A stretch of DNA of 64,000 nt from the sequence record DRR723986_1326. The stretch is one strand, 5' to 3'. A model generated the notes under the pieces. That model saw nothing but the letters and a program-made list of their open reading frames with translations. It was not told where the DNA came from and made no database searches. Of this stretch, positions 44,760-53,927 are shown one piece after another. Position 1 is the stretch's first letter, and each line of letters begins with the position of its first letter. Made by a program: the position numbers and the translations under genes.

Positions 44760-44917
44760 GCGGGTCCGAAGGAGACGAGTAGGAAGCTCTTAACATCGTG
44801 TCGTTTCATAAGTAGAACAAGCCGCTACTTGCCATTGGGCATGGTGTCGTGGCTACGAGACGGCGGAGAGTGCTTGCTACTCTGGAGTCGACCGCTGTGG
44901 CAGGCAGGCTGCCTGCA

Positions 44918-45304
44918 CTACGGCGCGAGTTGCTTACCGAAGGTGAAGACGATGATCCGCTCGCCCGTCTTGGTGCTGATGTCGGTGTGAAGGCTGACGA
45001 CTGGGGAGCCAACAATGTCGCCAATGACACTGTCCAACAGAGCTCGACCACTCTCGACAAGCTGCTGACGCATCTCCTTCACTAGCCGCCGCCCGCGACT
45101 TGGATCGCTCGTCTGCCCAAGCTGATGCTCGGCGGGCGTCAGAACACCCTTGAGCCGTACCAAGATCATGTCGTCAATAATGTACGACTTGACCTCCAGG
45201 GGACCGCGGCCAAGGAACTCCTTCTCAAAGCGGATGATTGCTTTGTTGATCTCCGTGGTGATTTCTTTTTGTGTAGACAAAGTAGATTCCGATTGGTTTT
45301 TCAA
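44918..45304 (-). CDS. DUF2294 family protein (MpsC/YbcI-like)
   Basis: FEKEFLGRGP..GVLTPAE..VKEMRQQL..SLHTDISTKTGERIIVF. Confidence 0.92.
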   Translation of the reverse strand: MKNQSESTLSTQKEITTEINKAIIRFEKEFLGRGPLEVKSYIIDDMILVRLKGVLTPAEHQLGQTSDPSRGRRLVKEMRQQLVESGRALLDSVIGDIVGSPVVSLHTDISTKTGERIIVFTFGKQLAP

Positions 45305-45486
45305 AGAGGTCGCCGTGCTGGGGCATCAGTGTGTCAACAACGGGCATTCATTGCTATTTCAATTCAAAGCATAGATCAAACCTATGGTAGCCAAAAAGCC
45401 CGGGAAATCAGGGCGTTTTTGCCACGGACTGGACAGGCTCCCTCTGCTTTGGCTAAGGATTTTCAACGCAATATAGAATTTATCAA

Positions 45487-45515
45487 TTGCTTTGCTGCGG
45501 GTCGGTCGATACATT
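45487..45515 (+). promoter_or_regulatory. Putative sigma70 promoter of the dab operon
   Basis: TTGCTT-N17-TACATT about 250 bp upstream of the dabB start. Confidence 0.5.
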
Positions 45516-45540
45516 CTGTCGGACAGAAGCGGGTTCTTGA

Positions 45541-45704
45541 CTGCAAAGCGCTGGACTGACACGAAACAGTCCTCGGAATGCAGATTCTCGTAACCTGAAT
45601 CACCCAAATTATACGCTGGTAGTTTTGCGGAACACTCCTGGAGTGAGTTCGCCAAAAGGCCGAGCATGCGAGTTCGTTTGAACTTGTGCGCTCGGCCTTT
45701 TTTT
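45541..45704 (+). promoter_or_regulatory. Structured 5' leader with intrinsic terminator (attenuator/riboswitch candidate)
   Basis: Hairpins GGACTG/CAGTCC (45553-45572) and GCGGAACACTC-CTG-GAGTGAGTTCGC (45627-45652); terminator AAAAGGCCGAGC..GCTCGGCCTTTTTTT (45654-45704) ending 62 nt before the ATG. Confidence 0.7.
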
Positions 45705-45766
45705 GTGCCCCAGCGGCCCTGATCCAACGTCAACGAACAACATTTCACCCAACTCCGAGAAGTTCC

Positions 45767-47377
45767 ATGCTACTGCTCAGTTGCCTACTTCTGATCTCGC
45801 TCGGGCTACTGCCAAATACTATCGCGAATCGTTCGCCCCTGAAGATCGCAGCGATCGCAATGTGCCTACTGGGGATCATTTTTGTCGACGCAATCGTTCT
45901 CTCGATTGCCAAGTTCACGCCAGTGGGAGCATCCGCCGGTTTCATCTCAGCGTGTGCTGGCCCACTAACGTTCTTCGACGGCTTGACCTCGACGATGACG
46001 ATCCTGATCGGTTTTATAGGTTGCGTCATCGTCAACTACGCCATGCGATACCTGGCCGGCGAGAAGACGCAGGGACGATTCATGAAGTGGCTGAGTTTCA
46101 CACTTGGCAGCGTTTCCATGATGGTCCTTGCGGGCAACTTAGTCTTTCTGGCATTAGCCTGGGTGATGACTAGTTTTGGATTGCATCAACTTTTGACCCA
46201 CTACCGCGACCGGCGTCCAGCTCTTCTTGCCGCGCGAAAGAAGTTCTTGATCAGCCGCTTTGGGGACATCGCAGTGTTCTCGGGAATACTCTTGGTCTTC
46301 CTACAGTTTAAGTCGGTTGAATACGCTCGCATCTTTGAATTGGCGGCGGACCAACAGGGTGAAGCGGGACTTCTGCCAGCACTGATTGGTGTTTGCTTCG
46401 CCGTAGGGGCACTAACGAAGTCTGCTCAGTTTCCGTTTCACACGTGGTTGCCGGAGACAATGGAAACACCAACTCCCGTTTCGGCACTGATGCACGCTGG
46501 CATTATCAACGGCGGCGGCTTCCTGATTATCCGACTCAGCCCTTTGATCTGCCTTTCACAACCAGCCATGGTCATCTTGATTGCCGTCGGTGGAACGACG
46601 GCACTGCTTGGCGGCGTTGTGATGATGTGCCAGACGAGCATTAAACGAAAACTTGCGTTCTCCACCATTGCTCAGATGGGATTCATGATTCTGCAGTGCG
46701 GTCTGGGTGCGTTCTCGGCAGCCTTGCTCCACATCGTTGCCCACTCACTGTACAAGGCGCACGCGTTCTTGAGTGCTGGGACTGCGGCGGATCAACCTTC
46801 CTATGGCCTACCGACCAAAGCGGCGACCGCTGGCCCCTCCATTGCAACTCACAGTGCTAGCCTGATCATTTCGACGGCGATTGTGCTTGCCACCACGTTC
46901 GCGTTTGGGCTGACCCACAAGTTGTTCGAGCCCGCTATTGTGTTGGTTGTTGCCTTTATTCTGGCGATGGCGTTCTACATCGGTTCAGGAGCATTGGCCG
47001 CCTCTGGACAAAAGCTTGTAAGTAGATTCGTCAGCTACAGCCTGCTTGCTCTGCTACTATCTGCCGCTTATGCAGGCAGTTTGCGAGTCTTTGAGCTAGT
47101 GCACACACCGGCACACCTGGAATCCGTTGGCGCGGCTCTATGGGCGGCGTCCGCGTTTATCATCCTGGCTTTCTTGGGTGTCTACCTTGTCCAACTGCTG
47201 GCCATCAAGACACTTCCTAGCCGATCTCTCAATGCAATGTATGTTCACGCTCTCAACGGGTTTTACCTCGACACAATCGCACACCGTGTTGCTGCCAAGA
47301 TCAGTGGCCATGACCTGAAGGTTGCCCCCGCTTACTCATCAAGTGTTTCGTTGACATCCCGGCGGAAGCGTAGTTGA
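45767..47377 (+). CDS. dabB: Inorganic carbon transporter membrane subunit DabB/MpsA (NuoL/ND5-like)
   Basis: KSAQFPFHTWLPETMETPTPVSALMHAG, STIAQMGFM, HSLYKAHAFL; directly upstream of DUF2309. Confidence 0.92.
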   Translation: MLLLSCLLLISLGLLPNTIANRSPLKIAAIAMCLLGIIFVDAIVLSIAKFTPVGASAGFISACAGPLTFFDGLTSTMTILIGFIGCVIVNYAMRYLAGEKTQGRFMKWLSFTLGSVSMMVLAGNLVFLALAWVMTSFGLHQLLTHYRDRRPALLAARKKFLISRFGDIAVFSGILLVFLQFKSVEYARIFELAADQQGEAGLLPALIGVCFAVGALTKSAQFPFHTWLPETMETPTPVSALMHAGIINGGGFLIIRLSPLICLSQPAMVILIAVGGTTALLGGVVMMCQTSIKRKLAFSTIAQMGFMILQCGLGAFSAALLHIVAHSLYKAHAFLSAGTAADQPSYGLPTKAATAGPSIATHSASLIISTAIVLATTFAFGLTHKLFEPAIVLVVAFILAMAFYIGSGALAASGQKLVSRFVSYSLLALLLSAAYAGSLRVFELVHTPAHLESVGAALWAASAFIILAFLGVYLVQLLAIKTLPSRSLNAMYVHALNGFYLDTIAHRVAAKISGHDLKVAPAYSSSVSLTSRRKRS

Positions 47378-47442: not shown

Positions 47443-50025
47443 ATGATCGACAAATGCTGGGAAACCGAAAGCGAATCATTCACCGGCGGACAAGTGGCCA
47501 CACAACCGCGCAGCTCCATTCCAACCAAGTCAGTGCCCAAACCCACGCAATCCTCGGCTGAAAAAATGAAGAAATCACTCCCGAACGCCTTCAGGGCAAT
47601 CGCCCCAGCTTGGCCTCTGAAGGACATGGTGGCTGTGAATCCGTTTACGGAGTTGGCTGATCGCAACCTATTCGAGCTCCATAGCGAGCTGCGAACTGTT
47701 CGCGACACTCAGCTCCTCATGCCGCTAAGCTACTACCAGGCTCAGTTTGATCACGGTGTTCTAACGAAGGCCAATATCTCACAAGCCTTAACAGAGTGTT
47801 CGAAGCAGTTTCCAAATCGTTTCGACGGTATTAGCTGGGAAGCCTTGGAGCTCACCCTTGCCGGTCAGCCGAAAGACGAAGAAGGAGATCGCCAGTTTTT
47901 GACAATCGCTGAAGTTGCCGACAAGGCTGCGGAGGCGCCGCACTGGGTTGCTTTGATCATCGACGATGTGTCAAAGTACTGCGCCGCATACTTCGACGCT
48001 GGGCAAGCGATATGGAACGCCGCGCGACCTTCCACCGAAGCTACCAACAACCTATACAGCTCGTGGAAGCAACTGGCGGAGATTGATCGCCGTCTGGAGG
48101 TCTACGGTCTGCCCGGTTTTAGGAAGTTTGTTTCTGATCTTCCCGATACACCTGAGGAAGCAATCGAGGTCCTAACGAAGGCCTGCGGAGTGCCCGAAGT
48201 AGCCACCGAAAAATTCTGGCAGGCGGAGCTCTTCAGCGTTGGTGGGTGGGCTTCGTACGCGAAGTACGTCGACCGGATCAACAAAATCGAGAACGTGGAG
48301 AATGGAGAGCTGGCGAGCCTGTTGGCAATCCGCCTAGCCTATGACTACGCACTGGTTCACCTTGGCGCGATCGAGTCCACGGCAATCGCTTGGTCTGCCA
48401 AACCGTCTCCGGATTCCGCTGACCACAGCGAAACGAAGATCTGCTACGTACTACAAACCGCTTTGGAAATCGCTTATCGATCCAAGATGCTCGACGGAGT
48501 GCTAGCCGCCCGTCCAAGTTTTCCGACCGGTACCGAGCAAGCGCCGGCGGAGTTCAATCTTGTATTTTGCATCGATGTGCGCAGCGAGATTATCCGTCGC
48601 CATCTGGAAAGCCAGTCCTCAGGACTCAATACATTCGGTTTTGCCGGATTTTTTGGAATCGCCGCTCAGCATCAATCCCCTGCATCGGCAGCAACGAACC
48701 AGTGCCCAGTTCTCCTGGACCCGGCCGTCGTCATTTCCGAATCAGGAGCGTCTGCCGACGAGCTTGGCAGGCAGCGTTCACGTGGCAAGTTCCTGCTGGA
48801 GGGCATCAAACGCCTCCAAGGAGCCGCCGTTTCTGGATTCGCATTTGTGGAATCCTGGGGCTTGAGCTACTTGCCCAGCATGATCTCGAGTGCGTTTCGG
48901 CCGAGTCTTCGGAAGGCAGGTTTAGCAGGCAAGACACCGACCAGCCAAACGACCAGTACTGGTTGCGATGTTCACCTGCAGGACCTGGAAAACAACAATC
49001 TGTCCGTTGAAGCGCAGGCCGACGTAGCCGCGAGCATCTTAAAGCACCTGGGCTTAACCAAGAACTTCGGAAAACTGTCGGTCTTCTGTGGTCATGGCAG
49101 TGCAACTGTCAACAATCCACTTCGTGCCGGACTCGACTGCGGCGCGTGCGGTGGCCACTCCGGTGAATCGAATGCGAAGATGGCAGCAACGCTACTGAAC
49201 TCGCCTGAGGTGCGTAAGATCCTGGCGACAAAGGGCTACTCGATCCCCGACGAAACGCACTTCATGGCCGCGGTGCACAACACCACGACCGACGAACTAA
49301 GATTCCTCGATACGGAGAAGGTTCCTGCAGCACTTGCAAGTGACCTGGCCGCGCTTCAAGCTCACTGCGATGCCGCGTCGGCACTTGCCAGAGCTGAGCG
49401 TGCAAAGAGATTCGTCGATTGCAGTGATGGTGAACAACTGCCTTTGAGAAGCACTGATTGGTCCGAAGTACGACCGGAATGGGGACTAGCAGGCAATGCG
49501 GCCTTTGTCGTCGCACCCCGATGGCGGACCAAACAACTCAAATTAGGCGGGCGTAGCTTCCTGCACTCCTACGAGTACGAGCAAGACGAGGGATTCGCAA
49601 CGCTTGAGCTGATTCTGACTGCGCCGATGGTGGTCACCAACTGGATCAACATGCAGTATTACGCCAGCGTCGTTGACAACAAGAACTATGGCTGCGGCAA
49701 CAAGGCAATACACAACGTCGTTGGTAAGATTGGCGTCCAGGAAGGCAATGGAGGGGATCTCCGCAACGGCCTTGCGCTGCAGTCCATCCATGACGGGGAA
49801 GGGCTACAGCACGAACCGCTTCGGTTGCAAGTGTTTGTCGAAGCACCTCGTGACGCAATCGCGGACATTCTGGGTCGACACGCGCATGTCGAAGACCTAG
49901 CCGCCAAGGGTTGGCTGCATTTGCATGCTATCGAATCGGGCGACTCGGAAACTTGCTACCGCTACTTGGGCAGCGGCCATTGGGATGAAATCCGCTCTCT
50001 CGAGCAAACTGCGTCGGCGAATTAG
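47443..50025 (+). CDS. dabA: DUF2309 DabA/MpsB, beta-carbonic anhydrase-like subunit
   Basis: IAPAWPL..VAVNPF; Zn ligands FCIDVRSE, GHGS, LDCGACGG; DWSEVRPEWGLA, WINMQYY, HEPLRL. Confidence 0.94.
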   Translation: MIDKCWETESESFTGGQVATQPRSSIPTKSVPKPTQSSAEKMKKSLPNAFRAIAPAWPLKDMVAVNPFTELADRNLFELHSELRTVRDTQLLMPLSYYQAQFDHGVLTKANISQALTECSKQFPNRFDGISWEALELTLAGQPKDEEGDRQFLTIAEVADKAAEAPHWVALIIDDVSKYCAAYFDAGQAIWNAARPSTEATNNLYSSWKQLAEIDRRLEVYGLPGFRKFVSDLPDTPEEAIEVLTKACGVPEVATEKFWQAELFSVGGWASYAKYVDRINKIENVENGELASLLAIRLAYDYALVHLGAIESTAIAWSAKPSPDSADHSETKICYVLQTALEIAYRSKMLDGVLAARPSFPTGTEQAPAEFNLVFCIDVRSEIIRRHLESQSSGLNTFGFAGFFGIAAQHQSPASAATNQCPVLLDPAVVISESGASADELGRQRSRGKFLLEGIKRLQGAAVSGFAFVESWGLSYLPSMISSAFRPSLRKAGLAGKTPTSQTTSTGCDVHLQDLENNNLSVEAQADVAASILKHLGLTKNFGKLSVFCGHGSATVNNPLRAGLDCGACGGHSGESNAKMAATLLNSPEVRKILATKGYSIPDETHFMAAVHNTTTDELRFLDTEKVPAALASDLAALQAHCDAASALARAERAKRFVDCSDGEQLPLRSTDWSEVRPEWGLAGNAAFVVAPRWRTKQLKLGGRSFLHSYEYEQDEGFATLELILTAPMVVTNWINMQYYASVVDNKNYGCGNKAIHNVVGKIGVQEGNGGDLRNGLALQSIHDGEGLQHEPLRLQVFVEAPRDAIADILGRHAHVEDLAAKGWLHLHAIESGDSETCYRYLGSGHWDEIRSLEQTASAN

Positions 50026-50475: not shown

Positions 50476-52575
50476 GTGAGCAATTACGAATCGGAAGATC
50501 GACGTATTCTGGAAGCGCTGCGGCGTATCGGAATCTGTCTCGACATCACGGTCGATACCGCGGCACTGAACCTGGGCGACGTACGCGTCGACGAAGATGA
50601 CGACCGCCAAAGTCGCCTGTTGGTAGAAGGTGCGCGGCAAGCTGGCATCTACATGACACCTCAAGAGGATGTCACCAGCCAGGAAGTGTTGAGTTCACTC
50701 TCGGAAAGCTTCCCGGTTGTTATCTCACAAGAGGATGGCACCTACTGGGTCTTCGAACAACTCGTTGGCGGCAAAGTCGAAGCGAGTCGGATTACGACCC
50801 GCGTAGAAGTTCAACTGCTTACCGAATCCGACGTAGCCCGCGAACTGAGAACCGAACATCAAGCCTGGCTTTGCAAGCGGGAACTAGAGTGTTCTACGAT
50901 GAGCGCCACCGACGAGCATGGTGGGCACGACGATCATCATCACGATCATCCAAAACCACTCTCCCGATTCATCGCTCTGCTCAACCTCGACCGGCGCGAT
51001 ATCTGGGCTATCGTTGTGTTCGCCACAGTAGCTGGAGTCCTGGGACTCGCAACACCACTGGCGATTGAGTCGCTCGTGAACGTTGTGAGCTGGGGCACAT
51101 ACGTTCAACCGCTGCTTGTCTTGGGCTTGATGCTGCTGGCTTGCCTGGGCCTCGCTGGCATCCTGAAAGTTCTACAAACGGTCGTAGTCGAAATCATTCA
51201 GCGTCGACAACTCGTTCGCATTGTCGGTGACCTGGCGCATCGATTCCCACGAGCCTCGCAATCAGCCCTCAGCGGCATCTATCCTCGCGAGCTGGCGAAT
51301 CGCGTGTTTGACATCATGACGATTCAGAAGGCCAGCGCGGTGTTATTGATGGATGGTGTCTCAATCATCCTGACAACGATCATGGGCTTGCTCTTGCTTG
51401 CCTTCTATCACCCATTCCTGCTTGGATTCGATATCGCCCTGTTGTTGTGCATGCTCGGTTTTACATGGGCACTGGGGCGTGGTGGGATCCGGACAGCGAT
51501 TGCAGAATCGATCACCAAGTATCGCATTGCCCACTGGCTGCAAGACGTACTGTCAACACCGGCAGCGTTTAAGGTGAACGGAGGCGAAACGCTTGCCATC
51601 GAACGGGCCAACCGCCTAACAGCGGATTACATCAGTGCTCGACAAAAACAATTCCGTGTAGTTATTCGCCAAATTGCTTTTGCGATTGGTTTGCAAGTCG
51701 TCGCATCAACCGCACTCCTTGGGTTGGGTGGATGGTTGGTGATGAGTCAGGAACTTACGCTTGGCCAATTGGTTGCTAGTGAACTTGTTGTCACGGTTGT
51801 CGTAGGGGCATTTGCCAAGGCAGGTAAATCGCTCGAGAAATTCTACGACTTGATGGCTGGCATTGATAAAGTTGGGCACCTGCTCGATATTCCCGTCGAC
51901 CCGCGTTATGAGATCGGTGAGATTCCCGCGGAACCGGTTGACGTTCACTGGGAAACACTCAATTTCGCTTTTGCTAACACCGGCAGCTCATGCTCTGTGC
52001 CGTCGCACACGGTCGAAGCTGGCACAACACTGGCTATCATCGGAGGCGACCGCACGGGCAAGTCTCTGTTGATTCGTTCACTTGCTGGTTTGATCAAACC
52101 CAAGAACGGCATGGCTCAAATCGGTGGCTTCGACGCCCAGAGAGCATCTTTGGCTGGGTCTGGGCGACTGGTTGGTTTGGCAAACCGTGGGGAAATTTTC
52201 CACGCCACCATTGAAGAAAACATCGACGTTGGCCGCAGCTTTGTCGGTAACAACCGTGTCCGTGACGCTCTTGTCCAAGTCGGGCTATGGGACACGATTA
52301 TGCGACTTCCAAACGGTCTACAGACTGTTTTGCAAAGCAATGGATCTCCGCTATCGAGCACGCAGAAGGCGCAGCTCATCATCGCTAGAGCGATTGCCGG
52401 CGGGCCAAGTCTGCTGCTGATCGACAGTCTGCTGGACGACCTGACTCCGGAGGTTCGCGAGTCTTTGTGGAAAACACTCGCCTGCGACGACGCGCCTTGG
52501 ACCCTGATCTTGGTGACGAACCAGCGATCGATTGCCAACCTGTGTGATAACAAACTCGAACTTCAGGGAGCTTAA
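50476..52575 (+). CDS. Type I secretion-like ABC transporter (TMD plus degenerate NBD)
   Basis: C39-like N-terminal domain, His-rich linker, 6-TM ABC membrane domain (LTLGQLVASE), NBD GGDRTGKS / LSSTQ / LLLIDSLLD. Confidence 0.88.
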   Translation: MSNYESEDRRILEALRRIGICLDITVDTAALNLGDVRVDEDDDRQSRLLVEGARQAGIYMTPQEDVTSQEVLSSLSESFPVVISQEDGTYWVFEQLVGGKVEASRITTRVEVQLLTESDVARELRTEHQAWLCKRELECSTMSATDEHGGHDDHHHDHPKPLSRFIALLNLDRRDIWAIVVFATVAGVLGLATPLAIESLVNVVSWGTYVQPLLVLGLMLLACLGLAGILKVLQTVVVEIIQRRQLVRIVGDLAHRFPRASQSALSGIYPRELANRVFDIMTIQKASAVLLMDGVSIILTTIMGLLLLAFYHPFLLGFDIALLLCMLGFTWALGRGGIRTAIAESITKYRIAHWLQDVLSTPAAFKVNGGETLAIERANRLTADYISARQKQFRVVIRQIAFAIGLQVVASTALLGLGGWLVMSQELTLGQLVASELVVTVVVGAFAKAGKSLEKFYDLMAGIDKVGHLLDIPVDPRYEIGEIPAEPVDVHWETLNFAFANTGSSCSVPSHTVEAGTTLAIIGGDRTGKSLLIRSLAGLIKPKNGMAQIGGFDAQRASLAGSGRLVGLANRGEIFHATIEENIDVGRSFVGNNRVRDALVQVGLWDTIMRLPNGLQTVLQSNGSPLSSTQKAQLIIARAIAGGPSLLLIDSLLDDLTPEVRESLWKTLACDDAPWTLILVTNQRSIANLCDNKLELQGA

Positions 52576-52577
52576 AC

Positions 52578-53927
52578 ATGAGCAATCAACAAGAATTACT
52601 CTGTGCAGATTTCCCAGCTCTCCACTTGGTTCGCACGGGCCGCCGCGTTCGCCTGCTGGGCCGACTGACTTTGTACGCCTTGATCGCAACCATCATTTTG
52701 ATGGTTTTCGTTCCCTGGCGGCAAACGGCGCGAGGAACAGGAACAGTCGTGGCAACAGACCCACAACAACGCCCACAACCGGTGTTGTGCCCGGCCGAGG
52801 GTGTCATCGAGTGGACACGTGAAGACCTTCGCGAAGGGTCGTACGTCGAGAGAGGAGACTTGGTCGCTCGAATCGCGCCATTCGCAGAAGATACCATCGC
52901 GCAGCTACAACAGCAGATTGATACCGTGAAGCTAAAGAAGGAGGCGGCTGAGCTCGCACTCAAAGCGGCTGAGCTGGCACAGCAGGGTCAGAAGGAGGCA
53001 GGCCAGCGATTTAATGAGGCTCTGGACGATGAACTGGAGGCCGCGGAGAGCAAGCTGGAGCAAGTAAAGAACGATGTTCCGCAAATGCAGGCTGACTTGA
53101 ATGATAAAATCAACAAGTACAACAACGCTCTCAAGGTAACCCCGCTGACGGTTGCTCGCGAGGAGTTGTTCTCGATGAGGCAAGAAGTCGATGCGGCGCA
53201 GGTGAAACTGGAGAAAGCCAACAACGCCGTACTCCAAGCTAAGGCGGATTTGAGATCCAAGCAAGCCGACGTTCAAGGCAAGCGACTCGAGATCGAAATC
53301 AAGAACAATAAAGCTGACATTGACGTCAGAGAGAAGCAAGACAAGCTGAATTCGATCGTCAACGAGATGACAGAGTACCAAAACAAGAAGGATGGGTATC
53401 GACTCGACATCACTGCTCCGCGAAGCGGTTTTATTCAGCAATGGACCAGCGTCGTCGGTAGCGACATTGTGAAGAAGGGCGATGCGCTCTGCATCATCGT
53501 CCCTGAGACAACCGACCTGGCGGTGGAGATGCAGGTTACTGGCAACGACATGCCGCTTATTCACGAAGGCGATCGCGTCCGACTGCAATTCGAAGGCTGG
53601 CCTGCGGTCCAGTTCGTCGGCTGGCCAAGTGTGGCTGTAGGTACGTTTGGCGGTAAAGTCAACCGCGTCTTCCCAACTGATGATAGCAAGGGGAACTTTC
53701 GGGTAGTTGTTACGCCTGACAAGCACTTTGACGGAGAGAGCGATTGGCCGGATAGCCGATACCTTCGTCAAGGCGTGAGAGCAAACGGATGGGTGCTTCT
53801 TAGACAGGTTCCACTTGGATACGAAATATGGCGTCAGTTGAACGGATTCCCACCAGTCGTTTCAGACGAAGAGCCAGGAAAGGGCAAGGACGACAAGGGC
53901 TCGAAGGTCAAACTGCCAAAGGCCTAG
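52578..53927 (+). CDS. HlyD family membrane fusion protein
   Basis: N-terminal TM, VPWRQT, long coiled coil, ITAPRSG, VRLQFEGWPAVQFVGWP. Confidence 0.92.
   Translation: MSNQQELLCADFPALHLVRTGRRVRLLGRLTLYALIATIILMVFVPWRQTARGTGTVVATDPQQRPQPVLCPAEGVIEWTREDLREGSYVERGDLVARIAPFAEDTIAQLQQQIDTVKLKKEAAELALKAAELAQQGQKEAGQRFNEALDDELEAAESKLEQVKNDVPQMQADLNDKINKYNNALKVTPLTVAREELFSMRQEVDAAQVKLEKANNAVLQAKADLRSKQADVQGKRLEIEIKNNKADIDVREKQDKLNSIVNEMTEYQNKKDGYRLDITAPRSGFIQQWTSVVGSDIVKKGDALCIIVPETTDLAVEMQVTGNDMPLIHEGDRVRLQFEGWPAVQFVGWPSVAVGTFGGKVNRVFPTDDSKGNFRVVVTPDKHFDGESDWPDSRYLRQGVRANGWVLLRQVPLGYEIWRQLNGFPPVVSDEEPGKGKDDKGSKVKLPKA

Follow-up and report, generated by a model that had tools for sequence, protein, structure and literature searches.

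DAB/MpsAB pumps provide inorganic carbon to many bacteria, and to our knowledge the regulation of these pumps is largely unknown. A 64-kb stretch of DNA (64,000 nucleotides of sequence record DRR723986_1326, the whole of which is called the window here) raises this question in a concrete form, as its pump genes, dabB and dabA, are preceded by a strong intrinsic terminator that adjoins no gene on its own strand. What does a terminator do in front of a carbon pump? A preliminary description, made from the sequence of the window, had proposed a leader RNA that attenuates transcription unless inorganic carbon is limiting. Here, we examine this proposal by folding the leader, by comparing it with the leaders of other dab loci, and by weighing it against other readings of the same stretch.

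Layout of the dab locus and its leader

The pump genes of the window lie on the plus strand: dabB (45767-47377) encodes a NuoL-like membrane subunit (Pfam PF00361, 3.2e-43, and PF00662), and dabA (47443-50025) encodes a DUF2309 protein (PF10070, E value of 2.6e-238). An intergenic region of 462 nt separates the dabB ATG at 45767 from mpsC (44918-45304), a DUF2294/MpsC gene on the minus strand (PF10057, E value of 2.2e-36). The upstream neighbor is thus divergent, as had been described, and no plus-strand gene adjoins the leader terminator, which therefore sits in a 5' leader; the plus-strand open reading frame (ORF) nearest to it ends ~900 nt upstream. Downstream of dabA, the window carries an ABC exporter and an HlyD-family gene (50476-53927), and an HlyD-family gene is also found directly upstream of mpsC at another dab locus (L011:501-2111). 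For comparison, a DabB search with one genome per species yielded 80 loci, among which that of a Pirellulaceae MAG, L001, is the sole close relative (82% DabB identity, with 37 to 56% for the other loci). Contigs of near relatives, 95 to 99% identical, came from four metagenome runs; with a depth of ~3 and few variants, comparisons with these contigs are weak evidence.

All features of the leader lie on the plus strand. The putative promoter (45487-45515) consists of TTGCTT at 45487-45492, a 17-nt spacer, and TACATT at 45510-45515, and its coordinates as first described are correct base by base. Measured against the sigma-70 consensus, from which planctomycete promoters may differ, it matches 7 of 12 positions and is absent from the list produced by a consensus scan; judged by its letters, it is not beyond chance by itself. 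It gains credit, though, because an element of equal position and spacing is kept in L001 (TTGCGA-N17-TACAGT) and because it shows zero changes in the near-relative contigs that cover it. The promoter block as a whole is 68% identical to that of L001 (25/37 positions). Transcription would start near 45522, giving a leader of ~183 nt to the end of the terminator and, counted from this presumed start, of ~245 nt to the dabB ATG, the length originally proposed. Between the terminator and the dabB ATG, neither the window nor L001 has a sigma-70-like site matching at least 8 of 12 consensus positions (planctomycete promoters may, again, differ), and dabBA probably has no promoter of its own. The best explanation of the locus is that the promoter, the ~183-nt leader RNA, and dabB-dabA form a single transcription unit.

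Two further stretches lie between mpsC and this promoter. At 45348-45390 the window is 70% identical to L001 while the surrounding spacer has diverged (CATTGC...AGCATAGA...CCTATG), and the minus strand of this block could hold the mpsC promoter (TTGATC, a 17-nt spacer, and a -10 element containing GCAAT). A weak two-way hairpin at 45396-45421 (A5, a GCCC stem, and T5), which matched the Rfam family STnc310 at chance level (E value of 6.7), is not kept in L001 and differs in a near relative at 45401, 45411, and 45420.

The intrinsic terminator (45654-45704) comprises a hairpin at 45654-45701 and a U7 tail at 45698-45704, so that a GC-rich hairpin and a U tract, a feature of the attenuator class, are present inside the 5' leader. 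Its 12-bp outer stem pairs 45654-45665 with 45690-45701 and carries an upper stem of 9 bp. Both the outer stem and the T7 run, 62 nt ahead of the dabB ATG, check against the preliminary coordinates. Among the 15 runs of at least six T residues on the two strands of the window, 4 are preceded by a hairpin that reaches -15 kcal/mol, and the leader terminator is the strongest of all at -31.9 kcal/mol, the next being -18.1 kcal/mol and the other three candidates being at that value or weaker. The leader terminator is beyond chance and exceptional for the 64-kb window. The 280-nt region as a whole (45487-45766) has a folding energy of -96 kcal/mol (z = -2.84), which 1 of 200 shuffled sequences equaled.

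The two ends of the leader are far less constrained. Hairpins are predicted in the 5' half (45522-45610), as the preliminary description had it when it spoke of stacked hairpins, but they are not conserved in L001, to which this half is 53% identical (42/79 positions). Near relatives carry four changes here (45528, 45531, 45537, and 45550), and the one at 45550, a predicted stem position, is uncompensated by our own reading. At the other end, a 62-nt spacer (45705-45766) follows the terminator, and its part from 45710 to 45766 is 42% identical to L001 (24/57 positions). The spacer starts with GUGCC (45705-45709), and GUGCC or GUGC also stands directly after the U tract in L001, in most copies of the leader motifs A and B of other loci treated below, and at an unrelated terminator of the L001 genome, so this string may be a general feature of terminator context in these genomes.

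Conserved 3' module and predicted antiterminator

The part of the leader that has been kept is a module of ~100 nt at 45611-45709, identical to L001 at 82 of 98 positions (84%), versus 42 to 53% for its flanks. It includes the segment adjoining the terminator that had been singled out at the start (CGCTGG...GTTCGC, correctly placed at 45614-45652), which does turn out to belong to the conserved part. Because conservation is confined to 45611-45709, the functional unit would be this 3' module rather than the stacked hairpins of the 5' half, and the last ~95 nt are best explained as the working part of the leader. In the near-relative contigs, the module is unchanged except for one base of a hairpin loop (45640) and one extra T in the U run, a weak comparison given the depth of ~3.

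The 16 positions at which the module differs from L001 largely respect its predicted pairing. Three pairs changed on both sides with pairing kept (45634-45644 from A-U to G-C, 45637-45641 from C-G to G-U, and 45674-45681 from U-A to G-C), two were altered on one side with pairing kept, one apical pair beside the terminator loop was lost, and six differing positions are unpaired. Two of the two-sided changes and one of the one-sided changes fall in a hairpin upstream of the terminator, P3 (45627-45652), where pairing is kept throughout; the terminator upper stem accounts for one change of each kind. P3 has a lower stem (45627-45631 with 45648-45652), an upper stem (45633-45637 with 45641-45645), and a loop (45638-45640) that varies in L001 and, at 45640, in a near relative, while its flanks are invariant in the two sequences. 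An irregular hairpin with a variable apical loop is, as far as the alignment indicates, a thin basis for a ligand pocket.

How widely is this module distributed? A BLAST search of 101 genomes, L001's own and 100 relatives, matched it solely in L001's genome, and a scan of 401 genomes of the phylum with an IUPAC pattern gave chance matches only, besides the known site. A simple scan of the DabB clade nearest to the window, with Schlesneria and two Verrucomicrobiota among its members, detected no leader terminator. The expectation that the motif would recur across orthologous leaders is thus not borne out. Nor does it match a named Rfam family, in line with the first impression: a cmscan-type search of Rfam 15 with window positions 44800-46300 (E value of ≤10) gave no match within the leader module, the only matches being STnc310 (16.2 bits against a gathering score of 40, at 45384-45427) and snoTBR5 (13.5 bits against 44), which are at chance level and outside the module.

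The module can adopt a second fold. When the terminator 3' strand is omitted, GCUGGUAGUUUUG at 45615-45627, the candidate antiterminator 5' strand (12 of 13 bases identical in L001), is predicted to pair with CAAAAGGCCGAGC at 45653-45665 around P3, in L001 as in the window. With only the terminator 5' strand made, this fold reaches -17.3 kcal/mol in the window and -17.4 kcal/mol in L001. Since its second strand is the terminator 5' strand itself, the two folds are mutually exclusive. The idea that the segment beside the terminator is a regulatory site thereby takes on a concrete form, as in predicted folds it can make a competing antiterminator in both copies. Both antiterminator strands are nearly invariant between the two window-type sequences, so the antiterminator is without covariation support. 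For the full module of the window, the terminated state is predicted at -43.5 kcal/mol and the antiterminated state at -27.5 kcal/mol; the terminated state being favored thermodynamically, termination would be the default, and read-through would need a stabilizing factor.

These folds suggest how the leader could work. During transcription, 45615-45627 would pair with 45653-45665 around P3 to form the antiterminator. Synthesis of the 3' strand (45690-45701) would then allow the far more stable terminator to displace it, and transcription would stop at the U7 tract, which extends to 45704. The default state would be OFF, and something that stabilizes the antiterminator would permit read-through into dabBA. 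On balance, the leader is probably a cis-acting terminator/antiterminator attenuator of dabBA, a reading drawn from sequence comparison and modeled folds that we hold with moderate confidence. Read-through into dabBA would then be conditional, with a small molecule, an ion, pH, or a protein as the candidate effector. Terminator/antiterminator attenuators and transcriptional ON riboswitches form a general class, in which a terminator has a 5' strand that also pairs upstream, the terminated state is favored, and a factor is needed for read-through. In its predicted folds, the window leader would resemble this class in each of these respects; unlike ON riboswitches, it has no known aptamer, and its candidate sensor, an irregular hairpin, is small and varies in its loop.

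Tandem leader RNAs in another DabB clade of Pirellulales

Comparison of the dab loci revealed two further structured leader RNAs, motifs A and B, which lie in tandem between mpsC and dabB and each end in a terminator. Motif B was found in 15 loci (12 of the 80 genome loci and three more that a model recovered from 151 genomes of the order), and motif A was found in 14 of these 15 (the loci are L006, L008, L010, L011, L016, L019, L023, L028, L036, L037, L041, L076, and L167-L169; example coordinates are L010:2667-2816 and L010:2827-2929). A DabB metagenome scan gave no relative of the window above 56% identity and neither motif in any of 79 loci. The order at the motif loci is mpsC, on the dabB strand, then a promoter, motif B, motif A, and dabB. 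The promoter of motif B is near consensus (TTGACG, a 17-nt spacer, and TAnnnT). Motif B itself is ~145 nt long, has a terminator with 7 to 9 U residues, and may lie 185 to 483 nt from dabB; after a gap of about 10 to 290 nt comes motif A, ~100 nt long and likewise ending in a terminator, 60 to 130 nt upstream of dabB.

Pairing in both motifs is backed by strong covariation. With alignments that were fitted to their own models, which favors the structures, 93% of cells are paired in motif A (14 sequences; two-sided changes in 17 of 26 pairs) and 95.6% in motif B (15 sequences; 20 of 38 pairs). None of 500 shuffles reached the observed values for either motif, and sliding the pairing partners lowered pairing to 33 to 46% (motif A) and 36 to 54% (motif B). 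Judged by these alignments, motifs A and B are well-supported structures. An Rfam search of ten related loci (E value of ≤1) gave three matches, all below gathering scores and none inside the motif intervals. With model R2 (motif A) and model R3 (the 3' module of motif B), each run against five whole genomes at 150 candidates scored per genome, matches of at least 64 bits occurred only at the dab locus, weaker ones being cross-matches between the two motifs at that locus or generic terminators elsewhere. When the 151 genomes of the order were scanned with R2 (26 candidates scored per genome), seven matched, three of them by plain terminators after unrelated genes; at this number of candidates, the lack of a match carries little weight.

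In 11 of 12 motif loci, no promoter-like site was found between the motif B terminator and dabB, and at L041 only ~10 nt separate that terminator from the start of motif A, so that the unit resembles a single operon with a pair of tandem terminators. Antiterminators are predicted here as well when the sequences are folded in truncated form: in 12 of 15 motif B sequences, a helix of GGUUUU and AAGGCC encloses P3, and, by our reading, one of CUG/GCU and AGCCGG encloses P1 in 14 of 14 motif A sequences. In the antiterminator helices of the two motifs, 84% and 64% of cells are paired, with one two-sided change per helix; being nearly invariant, these helices are without covariation support. Between motif B and dabB, two loci share an ORF of ~45 codons, read by eye, that ends in ...PPIRYDGDxTxIYLA* (approximately L019:2427-2567 and L023:2345-2479). 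Three other loci (L025, L039, and L049) have no leader terminator; their AT-rich leaders contain repeated TTCGCGAA/TTCGTGAA-like half-palindromes within 260 nt upstream of dabB, and this pattern hints that a DNA-binding regulator acts on these loci in their clade.

The window leader shares much of its design with these RNAs. With motif B, it has in common the mpsC, dabB, and dabA neighborhood, its own promoter with a 17-nt spacer, and a 3' module that runs from a U-rich strand through a hairpin and a terminator with an A tract and GGCC to at least 7 U residues and GUGCC; in both, an upstream strand is predicted to compete for the terminator 5' strand. In contrast, the conserved 5' domain P1/P2 of motif B (GGCUG...CAGUC enclosing a hairpin) is missing from the window, and mpsC is inverted in the window but lies on the dabB strand at motif B loci. 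The window terminator stands at the same distance from dabB as motif A and has a similar hairpin-plus-terminator design, yet the conserved GCUAAGCC and GGACAAGCCGG strings of motif A are absent.

Model R1 (motif B), built without the window, matches 45609-45710 at 20.9 bits, but only by deleting P1 and P3. An 8-nt match to AAACAGUC at 45563-45570, considered as a trace of motif B P1 in the 5' half, is not kept in L001 and is deleted by the model, and we rejected it. With R3, also built without the window, the window scores 24.8 bits and L001 scores 24.6 bits, and an unrelated terminator elsewhere in L001's genome reaches 25.4 bits; with R2, the window scores 18.9 bits (E value of 0.075) against 68.8 to 103.1 bits for 11 motif A loci among the 80. 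In a quick maximum-likelihood phylogeny of DabB (IQ-TREE, 48 rows), the 12 rows that bear the motifs group together as a single clade (SH-aLRT of 99). The other half of the tree holds the window and L001, on a long branch, alongside Schlesneria, two Verrucomicrobiota, and others. With scores at the level of generic terminators and its DabB in another clade, the window element is not demonstrably a member of motif A or B; its leader would instead be specific to its lineage, though working like motifs A and B. It may have arisen independently or may have diverged beyond recognition, and motifs A and B may be regarded as its design analogues.

Competing readings and candidate signals

Could the same features serve something other than attenuation? 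A promoter followed by a strong terminator would be just as typical of a small RNA gene, and an independent gene whose stable RNA of ~183 nt acts in trans or in another role and merely lies beside dabBA is conceivable, if unlikely; in that case, expression of dabBA would depend on leaky read-through or on an unrecognized promoter. The window leader has both elements and a long U tail like that of Hfq-type small RNAs, its conserved single-stranded stretch at 45613-45627 could act as a seed, and the promoter of motif B in the other clade is likewise near consensus, and this motif can be 185 to 483 nt away from dabB. A small RNA does not, however, account well for the finding that the most conserved stretch is the very one complementary to the terminator 5' strand and that the leader 5' half changes fastest. 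Furthermore, no promoter-like site lies downstream of the terminator, the 64-kb window contains elsewhere no complement with fewer than three mismatches but only three-mismatch matches, and motifs A and B each appear a single time in a scanned genome, at the dab locus (150 candidates scored per genome). A protein-coding role, either of a small ORF or of antisense ORFs spanning the intergenic region, is highly improbable. Open frames do exist (129 codons on the minus strand at 45359-45748 and 144 codons on the plus strand at 45125-45559), and L001 has antisense ORFs at the equivalent place; the antisense ORFs of the window and L001 nevertheless gave no alignment at an E value of ≤100, no ORF reaches a Pfam gathering score, and by eye the short ORFs of the leader are not kept in frame between the two. 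We therefore rejected the antisense and overlapping ORFs as genes, as they are neither conserved in L001 nor assigned to a Pfam family, and likewise a leader peptide, for which an ORF starting inside the terminator and an L001 ORF over the antiterminator strand had been considered (frames not kept, by eye).

The terminator might also be constitutive, acting as an insulator or dampener that fixes a low dabBA level or as a stop for stray plus-strand transcription running antisense through mpsC, with the conserved flank being ordinary terminator context. The generic terminator of the L001 genome that scores like the leader on the motif B 3'-module model (25.4 versus 24.6 bits) speaks for this reading, as it implies that the style of A tract, GGCC stem, U7, and GUGC is common in these genomes, and so does the lack of a leader terminator in the nearest DabB relatives in the simple scan. 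We nevertheless judge it rather unlikely. Conservation with compensatory changes continues over the 40 nt ahead of the terminator, which take in P3 and 45613-45627, and a plain terminator needs none of this; the complementarity of the upstream strand to the terminator 5' strand is kept in both copies; and the end of the nearest plus-strand ORF is ~900 nt upstream. The attenuator thus stays the preferred reading.

Which signal would such an attenuator read? Inorganic carbon limitation is the obvious physiological candidate, and this is pure inference. In Staphylococcus aureus, mpsABC, a bicarbonate transporter locus, comprises genes homologous to those of the window in a different order (mpsA-mpsB-mpsC, with a weak terminator ahead of mpsC), and we found no leader RNA described there (PMC6689103). 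The same source reports that mpsA expression is down-regulated at 5% CO2, giving CO2-dependent control of the pump a precedent, and that mpsC is dispensable for transport (PMC6689103). A literature search that covered articles without their supplements turned up no account of an RNA element at dab/mps loci.

MpsC itself is a second candidate. It is 86% identical to MpsC of L001 and 59 to 64% identical to MpsC of distant dab loci, at which DabB is ~40 to 50% identical, so that MpsC, aligned from ten loci, is by far the more conserved of the two proteins; strong conservation combined with the reported dispensability for transport in S. aureus (PMC6689103) makes a regulatory role conceivable. A confident structural model of MpsC (pLDDT 88) shows a repeat of helix and strand pairs. 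It has no solved relative by sequence, its best Foldseek match has an E value of 0.024, and its best VIA-align match (Z score of 6.7) is within the noise band of that tool, where RbfA/KH-type rows at Z scores of 4.5 to 5.5 do not stand out. Sequence, Foldseek, and VIA-align searches thus gave no fold evidence linking MpsC (DUF2294) to RNA binding, and they speak neither for nor against such a role. That the dab leaders of Pirellulales, the window module and motifs A and B alike, read bicarbonate, CO2, or a linked ion or pH directly, or are RNA targets of MpsC, is a speculative proposal that we think improbable.

What the leader means for the biology of these pumps depends on how read-through is controlled. 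If it is constitutive, the element would be an ordinary terminator of little interest. As it stands, the window offers a compact and testable terminator/antiterminator switch ahead of dabBA, and motifs A and B, unclassified and absent from Rfam, are the more interesting by-product of the comparison. If the leaders were targets of MpsC, this DUF2294 protein would act in antitermination and could finally be assigned a function, and if either that reading or direct sensing were true, this would be the first RNA-based control of a carbon-concentrating pump. Should the signal be inorganic carbon, an ion, or MpsC, the dab leaders would represent a new class of carbon-sensing gene control.
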